This document shows positions 30,001 through 33,000 of a stretch of DNA of 40,322 bases, in pieces; the stretch's first letter is position 1; every line of letters starts with the position of its first letter. This stretch comes from a virus (Duplodnaviria > Heunggongvirae > Uroviricota > Caudoviricetes): IMG/VR virus record IMGVR_UViG_2529293138_000012, positions 1 through 40,322 of that record; one strand, given 5' to 3'. Position numbers: made by a program.

Positions 30001-33000
30001 GACGCGTCAGCGGATGCGCCAATAGTGTTTTTACTCTCTGTAGTATTCTCTGAAGTAATCTCTGTTGTATTCTCTGTAAGATCGAAATTGGTTTTCCCTT
30101 CTCCGCAGCGAGTGGTTTCCCGTGTCCGCGGTGAAGGATTTCCCTCCTCCGCGAAATTGGATTTTACAGTTTCCCGAAAACGGGTTTCCCCATTTCTGGA
30201 AAACTGATTGTTTTCATTGATAATTTCATTAAGGCGCTCACAATCTATACGGTAGAACATTTTGTGCTCAAGACGCTTGTTGGTTTCAACCAAAATGCCT
30301 CTTGACACAAGATGCTTACGCGCTACAGCCTGTTGTTCAAATGTAAGTCCGGTTTCGTGTTGTATCTCTTCACGCGTTTTATGTACGCCTTCCGCTGCAT
30401 GTGCTTTATCCTGCCAGTAAAAAATCTGACCAAAGAAAATAACAGCGTGCGGACTTCCCATGTATTTAACGAGCCCAGGGTAATAAGCAACCGGATGTCC
30501 AAAATCGAGTAGAAGATCAGACGGACGCATAGCCACCTCCCAGGCGTTTAAACATTTTTCCGGACTGAAACGCCACCAGCGGATAACTCAGGGTATGAGT
30601 ACGTCCCTGAACCTGGCAGACAACCTTCTGGCTTTCTGTATTGACCAGGCAAACCCGCAGAACGTGGCCGTTGCTGGTGGTGAACCACTGCCCCACACGG
30701 GGGCAACGGTTGTATCGGTGATACAGGGAATTAACGATGCGGCGAATCATGGGCGCACCTCCCATTGATTACGGCGGAAAGCAGTGTGATTCAGACTGGT
30801 TTCAGCCTCATGGAATGCTTCAATGCAGCTCTCGTAGTACCGCATTGTGCGCAGACTTAACCCAAGCTGAAGCATCATCAGCCCATCAAGGGTGATGTAA
30901 TAACCACGCAGGGAATCGCCATACACGTGGTAAGTACCCGGAATGAAATTACGGGAGAAGAATTCACGTGAGCAGTTTAGATACTCGATTTTGTCGACGA
31001 TGTTCTGGTGCATGCGCTTAAAGTGGCAGGCAACATGCAGGGAGAAAATAACGGCCTTGCCGTTGACGGTCTCAATTTTGAGGAATGGGTGAGTAGTGGT
31101 GGTAGTCATGGTGACAGCCCCTTGTGTGTGTGCTTTACAGCTACCACCCACGGATGCGAAACCATGATTGGTGGCAGCCCAGACAGGATTCGCATTACCG
31201 GACACACAAGGGAAAACCGGCGCTTCCGAAGAAGCTCCCATCTGAGCCGCCATTGAATAGACGTGCGCAGACAAAAAAACACGCTTACGGCGTGTCAGCC
31301 CTGTGTGATGTTTCGGGATGCGAAGCCCGGTTGCTGGATTTACAGCAACGCGGGAAATATAACCCGGAACACCAGCACAGCGCAATAGTTTGAGATATTC
31401 GAAAAGAGATGTAGTAACAACCTTACCGTTGACGGTCTCAATTTTGAGGAATGGGTGAGTAGTGGTGGTAGTCATGGTGACAGCCCCGGTAGTCTGTTTT
31501 TTAGAAAACTCACCACCAAGGCTTTCCACGACCTTATAGGTGGTGAGACGTACAGGGGTGGAAATACCGGAGACTACCGAACCCGGCCCGACCGAAGTCG
31601 GCCCTGTACGCCCCACCATAATTTGGGCGTAGCAATGCTCATGACAAAAAAAAACCGCATGAGCGCGGTTATGCTCAGTAATCAATTTCGGGTTTCCACG
31701 CCCGGCACCCGCTTTATAAGGTGCAGGGACAGTGTAACGTCCAGAAATTGAGGAATCAATGTTTTGATAAAATTCAGCGATTAGAGGCTTCTTTTCTCCC
31801 CATATTAACTTTGAACAAAAGCTCCATGCGATGAGTCCAGATACCCCGTTCTTTGAGTTGTGCTCTGGCTTCTTCGCGCTCAGATACGGAAGTTCTGACA
31901 ATACGATTTCCAGCCAGATTGCGGCGATATTCTCCAAACGCGACTGACTGAAGGTATGCAACGGAGCTTTTGTACTGATAGATGGCTCTTCGAAGGCTGT
32001 TTTTATATTCCTTAGGTATATGTCCGAGATCGGCAAAAAGCTCATGAACGATATCGTGAACAAGCGGAACAACTTTGTATGGAATAACAAAGAAGCTTTC
32101 TGGATAGCGTTCAGCCAATACTTTAATGATTTCTTTATTTGCAAGATGCCTTGCTTTTCTTCCCATATACCATTCTCCATTACTCCAGATATCAGAATGA
32201 TATATCCAGATTTTTTAAGCAGTTCAAGCTTATGCAGGTGCTTCACACTCAACAAAATCACGACGAAACAACCACAACGGGCTGAAACATTCGTGCGGAT
32301 AGCCGTCACGCAGGTAAATGACTCGCTGCGTTTCAGACTCCCAGCGTATAACGTGGACACGACGCCCCCTTCCGTCACAGAACCAGCGATTGAGTACTTG
32401 CATTTGGATTTCATTCCACACCTACCCCTTCACGCTGATTCCAGTCATGAACAGCACGTTCTTTCGAATCAGGAATCTGGTTTGCGTTACAGCAAGTACA
32501 TGCGATGTAATAACCATCATCGCCATCCAGAAAATATTTCACCTCAATGAGTTGTACTTCCGGATTTCCGCAGAACGGGCAAGGTTTCAGATCGACATCA
32601 CCAGTTACACATGTCTTGGTTTGCATCATTTGTTCTCCTGTAAAAGATTCGCGAGCTCAGTGTTATGGGTAAACAGCCCATCCCATGTTTTCTTCATCGG
32701 TAGTTCGCCGTTCAGATAATGGCGATATAACCAGGCGGCACCTTTTTTCTTCAGGAGTGGTTTGAAAATCTCGCGCATTTCCCCGTTTTCCTGCTCAACC
32801 TGCCCAGAACGCTCAGTCAGGTATTGGTCACGTGCATACGCTTTTACACGCCAGCGCGGATACATAGCCTCAGGCCGGTCGTCATACAGCCAGTTACGCT
32901 CTTCAAGGAACGCATTAATCTGACGAGTGTTTACACCGTTGAGTTGTTTGCAGAACTGCACAGGAGTGATGCCATCGGCGAGATAGCTTTCGAGTTTGCT

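Follow-up and report, generated by a model that had tools for sequence, protein, structure and literature searches.

The 40,322-nt viral DNA analyzed here (IMG/VR virus record IMGVR_UViG_2529293138_000012, positions 1 to 40,322; hereafter the window) is a lambdoid E. coli prophage related to the Stx-converting phages, and from the anatomy and conservation of its positions 30030-30235 we infer that they form the prophage's replication origin, set within the linker-coding part of the initiator gene. In this reading, to which we assign a probability of roughly 70%, an array of four tandem 12-mers of the type ACAGAGAWTACW would be the element at which the DNA unwinds and the helicase enters. That an origin lies inside its initiator gene is textbook; this one has a non-lambda initiator, and its distinguishing feature is the conserved 12-mer module.

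The candidate origin lies on the minus strand, inside an open reading frame (ORF) at 29622..30536, and in the direction of the gene it runs from an AT-rich block through the iterons and a spacer to the 12-mers and then a GC-rich block, the repeats and AT block together spanning nt 302-507 of the coding sequence (CDS) or residues 101-169. The AT-rich block (30205..30235; 26% GC) lies upstream of the iterons and encodes the end of a helix (residues 99-111). A 23-nt register then gives five iteron copies between 30204 and 30090. Iteron 1 (30182..30204; GTTTTCCAGAAATGGGGAAACCC) carries the partial dyad GTTTTC...GAAAC, which was found as an inverted repeat; iteron 2 (30159..30181; GTTTTCGGGAAACTGTAAAATCC) has a degenerate right half and keeps only its left half, and TTTCGGGAA is strongly conserved among homologues; iteron 3 (30136..30158; AATTTCGCGGAGGAGGGAAATCC) matches the consensus without mismatch, and iterons 4 (30113..30135; TTCACCGCGGACACGGGAAACCA) and 5 (30090..30112; CTCGCTGCGGAGAAGGGAAAACC) with one mismatch each. 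Partial dyads are present in copies 1-3. Between iteron 5 and the array is a 12-nt spacer (30078..30089; AATTTCGATCTT) whose codons TTC GAT are kept in five of five homologues. The four 12-mers occupy 30030..30077 (33% GC); in coding register, from 30077 to 30030, they are ACAGAGAATACA, ACAGAGATTACT, TCAGAGAATACT and ACAGAGAGTAAA, and they are read TENT TEIT SENT TESK (residues 154-169). The GC-rich flank (29978..30029; 63% GC) contains the most stable 30-mers of the neighborhood and borders the low-stability zone.

Both arrays were reported by Tandem Repeats Finder (TRF), one with period 12 at 30035-30078 (3.7 copies, 81% matches, score 67) and one with period 23 at 30093-30153 (2.7 copies, score 66); a repeat search likewise returned iteron copies at 30090, 30113 and 30136, plus weaker ones. 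At one mismatch or fewer, ACAGAGANTAC has five sites in the whole window against an expectation of 1.3, and only 1 of 100 shuffles reached five; four of these sites are inside the array. The iteron sequence CGCGGANNNGGGAAANCC, at the same tolerance, occurs as three copies with an exact 23-bp spacing and nowhere else in the window; a fourth copy, with three mismatches, lies 46 bp beyond them, with iteron 2 in between. For the iteron core GGGAAANCC, the window has five sites where 1.19 would be expected (none of 100 shuffles had as many), three of them in phase at 30090-30204, and no other cluster of either iteron motif exists elsewhere in the 40 kb. A first-pass annotation had described four tandem 12-bp repeats, four to five iterons of about 22 bp and an AT-rich segment, all within the initiator coding sequence. 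The location, the 12-mers (by TRF and by the shuffle test) and the AT-rich segment, whose 30-mer starting at 30205 lies at the 98th percentile of the window for low stability, are borne out, as is the periodicity for which a repeat finder had been proposed as the check; the iterons number five, of which three are strong, but their period is 23 bp rather than 22.

The same annotation held that the middle of the protein is partly constrained at the level of the DNA, and comparison of diverged homologues upholds this. As the 23-bp period is out of the reading frame, the iterons cannot be a peptide repeat. We compared the window gene with five homologues of 51-74% amino acid identity (from Klebsiella, Serratia, Pantoea and two metagenomes) and scored codon identity, the share of same-codon use among residue pairs that are identical in two proteins. 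It is 0.45 in the N-domain and 0.48 in the C-domain, and rises to 0.70 in the AT block, 0.74 in the iterons and 0.88 in the spacer plus 12-mers, with Fisher P values relative to the two domains of 1e-6, 3e-16 and 3e-26, respectively, which are optimistic, the pairs not being phylogenetically independent. Amino acid identity among the homologues is lower across the origin region than in the folded domains. Synonymous codons are thus frozen at the repeats, which places the constraint on the DNA, as purifying selection at that level. The number of units does vary among close relatives: an E. coli homologue (P0004) is without about 20 residues, a stretch that covers the last part of the AT block and either iteron 1 or iterons 1 and 2, and another locus (L123) carries five 12-mers instead of four.

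The 12-mer is far from peculiar to this prophage. Nucleotide searches (blastn) with the region returned mid-gene matches, confined to the 12-mers, in replication-initiator genes of other phages, among them Bacillus phage PM1, Acinetobacter phage IME-AB2, Erwinia phage PEp14, mEp460 and phages of Klebsiella, Providencia and Pantoea. Scanning with the pattern ACAGAGANTACNACAGAGANTAC, which has 20 fixed bases, gave at least 120 matches each in a viral collection and in a 596-Gb genome collection, where we estimate that about 0.1 and about 1, respectively, would arise by chance. Among the matches listed, which come from Proteobacteria, Bacillota, Cyanobacteria, Chloroflexota, the candidate phyla radiation (CPR) and others, the hosts include Gamma-, Beta-, Alpha- and Deltaproteobacteria, Bacillus, Clostridia, Lachnospiraceae, Selenomonadaceae, Orenia, Caldanaerobacter, Chloroflexota, Cyanobacteria, Gracilibacteria, Saprospirales, Fibrobacteres and Nitrospirae, and 118 of the 120 viral and 108 of the 120 genomic matches lie mid-ORF and are read T-E-x-T. 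Clustering on the upstream 200 nt resolved at least 125 distinct contexts; across these 125 clusters the arrays have two to five units, in which ten positions out of twelve do not vary between phyla. In 41 of the 52 viral-contig clusters the 12-mers are preceded on their 5' side, at a distance of 2-51 nt (mostly less than 35 nt), by a tandem array whose period is 23 nt in 25 of these clusters, 21-24 nt in another 10 and 45-48 nt in the other 6, and the sequences of these upstream units are unrelated between clusters and often dyad-symmetric. We define the class here as two or more tandem ACAGAGAnTACw units located 2-51 nt 3' of an array of about 23-nt period on the same strand; the window has four such units, 12 nt past iteron 5. 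The purine-rich strand is always the one on which the iterons are 5' of the array, which in coding cases is the non-template strand.

The codon choice of the array is fixed across lineages. When the pattern was relaxed to admit every T and E codon (ACNGARANNACNACNGARANNACNACNGAR), hardly any further loci were gained, and those that do not conform are unrelated T-rich repeat proteins. In 101 unique contexts, the T before E is ACA in 280 of 303 positions (26% elsewhere in the same ORFs) and E is GAG in 282 of 303 (background 43%), the T after x is ACT or ACA in 196 of 202 (background 49%), N is encoded 70:0 by AAT over AAC, and I is ATT in a ratio of 78:4. Taking one codon per cluster leaves GAG at 33/38 (P = 2e-8) and ACA at 33/38 (P = 3e-14), and the array is retained in loci of 58-63% GC. 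Other frames, and no frame at all, are also tolerated. In an initiator with the PM1/AB2-type N-domain (L211), a first unit of 13 nt shifts the frame and the remainder is read YRDYHRDY, and in a Halomonas relative of the window's N-domain (L203) the array is read LQRLLQRV; non-coding arrays stand beside iterons in Orenia (L199), in Hyphomicrobiales contigs (L189 group) and in Planococcus (L231), where one unit has an in-frame TAG. The 8.4-kb Bacillus plasmid pBSG3 (NC_014104.1; L295, 739-845) carries three ACAGAGATT units behind three CCTACAGGGAAA iterons that are spaced 23/22 bp apart, again non-coding, and such a module is present on at least seven records of small rolling-circle-type plasmids of Bacillus amyloliquefaciens/velezensis. 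Judged by this pattern of conservation across bacteria, the 12-mer is a DNA element rather than a peptide motif, and what had been annotated as a local feature of the window is indeed present there but recurs pan-bacterially.

Downstream of the pBSG3 module is a remnant of the later codons of a PM1-like initiator; neither module nor remnant falls in a real ORF, and the plasmid encodes no such initiator. The module could have been captured from a phage, and would then allow the plasmid to be replicated or transduced by an infecting phage. Some matches to the pattern are unrelated to replication. We excluded L023, L188, L201, L240, L248, L128-L131, L137 and L169 as T/E-rich or YNRD repeat proteins that mostly use other codons; L023, L240, L188, L248 and L201 include the YNRD repeat of a giant virus, a protein from a DPANN archaeon and surface-like proteins that are rich in T/E and have 9-13 units. 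That such proteins share the 23-nt pattern cautions against predicting origins from the pattern alone. Three non-coding matches (L241, L285 and L289) had no clear iterons or phage context and were not counted as origins. A full-text literature search, with older subscription literature outside its reach, returned no description of the 12-mer or of a TExT motif in origins, and a paper on the replication types of Stx phages (PMC8044961) does not mention iterons or origins.

The initiator itself has 304 residues and matches phrog_270, 'replication initiation protein' (1.1e-65). Searches against Pfam (E ≤ 0.01) and NCBIfam gave no match, and a PDB sequence search gave only a spurious one to Nop16 (E = 0.37). 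In an AlphaFold2 (AF2) model built with a 34-sequence multiple sequence alignment (the single-sequence model, with a predicted local distance difference test score, or pLDDT, of 41, was too poor for use), a winged-helix N-domain (residues ~18-110, pLDDT 65-78) is joined by a disordered linker (residues 110-186, pLDDT ~30) to a helical C-domain (residues 187-271, pLDDT 80-89), and the best Foldseek matches are winged-helix proteins, all of them weak (E ≥ 0.0075). The iterons and 12-mers (residues 111-169) fall within the predicted linker, between the two folded domains.

The mechanism that we favor would begin with dimers of the winged-helix N-domain binding the five 23-bp-phased, partly dyad iterons (30204-30090) and distorting the DNA. 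The adjacent low-stability 12-mers (30077-30030) would then open, with the GC-rich block bounding the far side; through its C-domain the initiator would recruit the phage's own loader (DnaC-like) and helicase (DnaB-like), whose genes directly follow its own, and the helicase would be loaded on the opened 12-mer DNA. The 12-mers would probably be read in single-stranded form, either by the conserved N-domain or by the helicase machinery, and the upstream AT-rich block (30235-30205) is a second soft spot, which may be an auxiliary or alternative opening site. Iteron binding, opening, the site of helicase loading and the partner that reads the 12-mers are all steps that we infer.

In predicted duplex stability, both flanks of the iterons are soft in the window: the array plus spacer (30021-30089) has values of -33 to -35 kcal/mol per 30-mer, with a regional mean of -41, and beyond the array a 'clamp' of -49 to -50 kcal/mol lies at 29978-30019. 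For about 1 kb in both directions, however, no 30-mer is less stable than that at 30204-30233 (-32.0 kcal/mol), on the AT-block side of the iterons.

The proteins that carry the array are modular, and the array is where the modules meet. The 109 array-bearing ORFs share a diverged N-terminal ..Q..YW.. / L..G winged-helix signature, in which at least 90% keep the residues that correspond to Y40, W41 and L76 of the protein encoded in the window, although the alignment is very diverse and homology of every member is unproven. What follows the array belongs to at least five families, Phg_2220_C, DUF6017, DnaB_2, DnaA_N and DnaT; DnaA_N, the helicase-binding domain of DnaA, is found in four of the array-bearing initiators, DnaT in three and the DnaD-like DnaB_2 in five. 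It looks as though the C-terminal module is an exchangeable adaptor, by which initiators connect to one or another route of helicase loading. Three loci (L010, L028 and L100) align with the window gene from CDS nt 472 to the stop codon, phiP27 shares only 29622-30025, the C-terminal half, and among the matches listed for the 1639 E. coli genomes that match the gene, most partial ones cover only CDS nt 454-493. Homology with other initiators thus starts or ends at the array, which indicates that the array is also an in-frame junction for module exchange.

Several of these observations weigh against an origin that opens at the 12-mers. The locus's least stable 30-mer is in the AT block (-32.0 kcal/mol) rather than in the array (-33 to -34 kcal/mol), and opening could start there; the AT block too shows synonymous constraint (0.70, compared with 0.46 in the folded domains); and the array is only moderately AT-rich, at 67% AT compared with 78% in the corresponding lambda segment. 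As single-stranded DNA the array is essentially unstructured (-0.9 and -1.5 kcal/mol), but shuffled sequences are equally so, and single-strand folding is therefore uninformative beyond composition. Among the matches listed, 226 of 240 loci use the T-E-x-T frame, a dominance from which it follows that some peptide-level or common-descent constraint also exists, and to which module exchange at the array may contribute. The array stands at homology breakpoints, and part of its uniformity could stem from frequent recombination rather than from a role in replication. To these may be added the optimistic P values of the codon comparison and the fact that the literature searched contains no experiment on this phage or on any 12-mer-bearing origin.

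Put together, such points describe an alternative in which the origin is correctly located but it is the AT block (30205-30235) that unwinds, as the layout in the first-pass annotation implies, and the 12-mers serve mainly as an in-frame joint for swapping N-domain-plus-iteron modules against C-domain modules by homologous recombination. The soft 30-mer of the AT block and its frozen codons speak for the first part; for the second, so do the breakpoints in the three loci, in phiP27 and in the partial E. coli matches, the variety of Pfam families among the C-domains, and the near-exclusive use of a single reading frame, as a shared joint would require. We nevertheless consider this alternative unlikely. 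Across the 125 clusters the stability dip upstream of the iterons is weak, and the least stable 30-mer of the neighborhood (-320 to +150) is on the 12-mer array in 70 as opposed to upstream of the iterons in 24; lambda, moreover, has its unwinding segment on the side that corresponds to the array. Selection for exchangeability, being weak, would hardly freeze synonymous sites across phyla and in GC-rich hosts, and it leaves unexplained the arrays that stand beside iterons in non-coding DNA or in shifted frames. Nor are the two roles mutually exclusive: the array could serve as a joint for recombination and in replication as well.

A second alternative, which we regard as quite improbable, is that the 12-mers act via transcription, their purine-rich coding strand favoring an R-loop or a pause and so giving the 'transcriptional activation' that lambda-type origins need. 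The lambda origin requires transcription nearby, the orientation of the purine-rich strand is constant throughout the class, and purine-rich repeats occupy the same place in lambda and P22. Nothing in the sequence demands such a role: a scan of 29500-31000 returned two promoter-like sites, on the plus strand of the AT block, where 1.2 +/- 1.1 are expected by chance, with none inside the 12-mer array and no terminators in that interval; the origin region has no Rfam match at E ≤ 1; and a preference for R-loops would not need ten of twelve positions to be fixed. Least probable of all, and very much so, is that the repeats are a low-complexity protein linker without DNA function, or a site for initiator titration or autoregulation with the origin elsewhere in the prophage, for although the region does encode a predicted disordered linker, unit number does vary in close relatives (L123 and P0004) and lambda iterons alone can mediate inhibition of replication (PMC3349717), this is countered by the out-of-frame 23-bp period, by synonymous sites that are frozen while residues vary, by codon choices fixed across lineages, by the non-coding and frame-shifted copies of the array, and by the lack of a second cluster of the iteron motif in the 40-kb window.

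If the 12-mer is indeed an unwinding or helicase-loading element, the question of what reads it becomes a concrete one. With ten positions in twelve fixed across phyla, and with GAG preferred over the more AT-rich GAA, the constraint is not mere AT-richness, and the sequence must be read by some partner. For this part the shared N-domain is the most parsimonious choice, with the helicase machinery or transcription as alternatives. Known sites compared by eye with the 12-mer (the DnaA box, the DnaA-trio, IHF sites, the sigma-70 -10 element, the DnaG CTG site and Rho YC spacing) did not fit convincingly. It is tempting to go further and to propose that ACAGAGAWTACW arrays are an undescribed, sequence-specific origin element of temperate-phage and some plasmid replicons in most bacterial phyla, always placed 3' of lineage-specific 23-bp iterons and read by a conserved partner, be it the N-domain on single-stranded DNA or the helicase machinery; we offer this broader generalization tentatively, as somewhat short of an even chance.

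These results pinpoint a candidate prophage origin and the cis elements that would control its replication, a process that drives the amplification of toxin phages. They also describe a 12-nt cis motif that is conserved down to the codon in lineages that range from Enterobacteria to Bacillota, Cyanobacteria, Chloroflexota and the CPR, and few DNA motifs are so widespread. In practical terms, the motif supplies a one-line pattern by which replication origins and the genes of their initiators can be located in phage or prophage DNA that lacks annotation, and the array accounts for the in-frame shuffling of N-domain-plus-iteron and helicase-recruitment modules between phages.

Directly downstream of the initiator is a DnaC-like helicase loader gene (28733..29620, minus strand; Pfam IstB_IS21, 3.6e-16; phrog_50, 4.4e-84), followed by a gene for a DnaB-like replicative helicase (27321..28736, minus strand; Pfam DnaB_C, 3.5e-72). 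An 82-residue ORF of phrog_1153 (unknown function; 4e-43) at 30517-30765, minus strand, overlaps the start of the initiator by 20 nt; four of the five homologues have a small ORF in the corresponding place, and none was called in Serratia. Klebsiella, Pantoea and one metagenome homologue retain the order (repressor)-cro-x-initiator-loader-helicase; the Serratia locus keeps the initiator-loader pair, its sequence ending within the loader gene, and the fifth locus has a lambda-P-like gene where the loader would be. The initiator gene is 95-98% identical to that of several Stx-converting phages and is present at full length in 101 of 5426 complete E. coli genomes. Rfam places a cluster of RNA elements, all above gathering score, on the minus strand at 31167-31724, just upstream of these genes for replication: two C4 antisense RNAs (31536-31623 and 31167-31257), two copies of isrK (31648-31724 and 31274-31349) and a c4-a1b1 target (31310-31362). 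The cluster is a duplicated P1/P7-type antisense immunity module, beside which lies a 130-residue ORF (31774-32166, minus strand) that appears ProQ/FinO-like by eye; a 555-residue 'ORF' called across the module (30747-32414) is probably spurious.

How does this origin compare with those already known? The first-pass annotation had likened it to that of lambda, in which four 18-bp iterons and a 38-bp AT-rich segment lie inside gene O (PMC3349717), with iteron starts spaced 20, 24 and 23 bp. The likeness is considerable: in both, the origin is inside the initiator gene between the parts encoding the DNA-binding and recruitment domains, there are four to five dyad-type iterons at a spacing of about 20-24 bp, an easily melted segment with a purine-rich strand comes directly after the last iteron in the direction of the gene, and genes for helicase delivery lie downstream. 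In detail, however, the architecture departs from that of lambda, as the annotated AT block precedes the iterons, giving the window an extra AT-rich element on their other side, and it is the 12-mer array that sits at the position of lambda's AT-rich run, whose 38 bp are replaced here by four exact-type 12-mers of 33% GC. The positional argument is strengthened by a viral contig (L018) in which a lambda-like C-domain (46% identical) stands behind a 12-mer array: this array aligns exactly with lambda residues GDTKDTITKEKRKDY, which are encoded by the AT-rich ori segment right after iteron 4, and the alignment runs on through SSENSGESSDQP, so that in position the 12-mer array corresponds to the segment at which lambda unwinds. 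The delivery of the helicase also differs, as the window phage brings its own DnaC-like loader and DnaB-like helicase whereas lambda P acts on the host DnaB.

The initiators are another matter. That of the window has no detectable similarity to lambda O, there being no significant BLASTP alignment between them and no match to the Pfam family Phage_rep_O at E ≤ 0.01, and none of the 109 array-bearing initiators matches Phage_rep_O. The gene called 'O-like' is thus so in role and layout but not in family, and we describe the origin as lambda-like in its layout and do not file its initiator with the lambda O family. In lambda itself (L174), one near-consensus unit, TCAGAGAATTCT (10/12), is found immediately after the AT-rich run, and the 12-mer array may have degenerate relatives in the AT-rich segments of classical origins.

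In P22 the annotated rep_origin (32840-32984 of NC_002371) likewise has iterons followed by two repeats of the ACAAAAGACAATAT type (L297, 1930-1965). As in the window, the iterons are inside the initiator gene, here gene 18, and the short purine-rich tandem repeats that come next start with ACA and precede a DnaB-like helicase gene. The P22 unit differs in being 14 nt long, more AT-rich and of another sequence, there is no DnaC-like gene, and gp18 is, by our reading of its sequence, of the lambda-O N-domain type. Short purine-rich repeats that start with ACA therefore recur after iterons as a common theme.

The RepA_N initiators of Gram-positive plasmids, such as RepA of pSK41, also have a winged-helix N-domain, and their iterons and origin are in the central, poorly conserved part of their own gene. 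N-domain structures of this family (4pt7, 4pql and 5kbj) are among the fold matches of the window initiator, but weakly (E 0.05-0.1, template modeling scores of 0.2-0.4) and amid generic winged-helix proteins, and the window initiator has no sequence match in the PDB. We know of no 12-mer array reported for this family.

The closest functional analogy for the ACAGAGAWTACW array is provided by the repeated 13-mers of oriC and of plasmid RK2, which are required and sequence-sensitive and are bound by their initiators strand-specifically as single-stranded DNA (PMC4980987). At oriC and RK2 oriV, as here, two to five head-to-tail 12-13-mers occupy the least stable segment beside the initiator's double-strand sites. 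The array differs in its sequence and in lying inside a coding region, and also in its distribution: the 13-mers of oriC and RK2 are replicon-specific, whereas the ACAGAGAWTACW array is common to many phyla and to initiators with unrelated iterons. Should it prove to be a general origin element, the array would be the phage counterpart of the oriC 13-mers or of the DnaA-trios, and a universal tag for the origins of phages.

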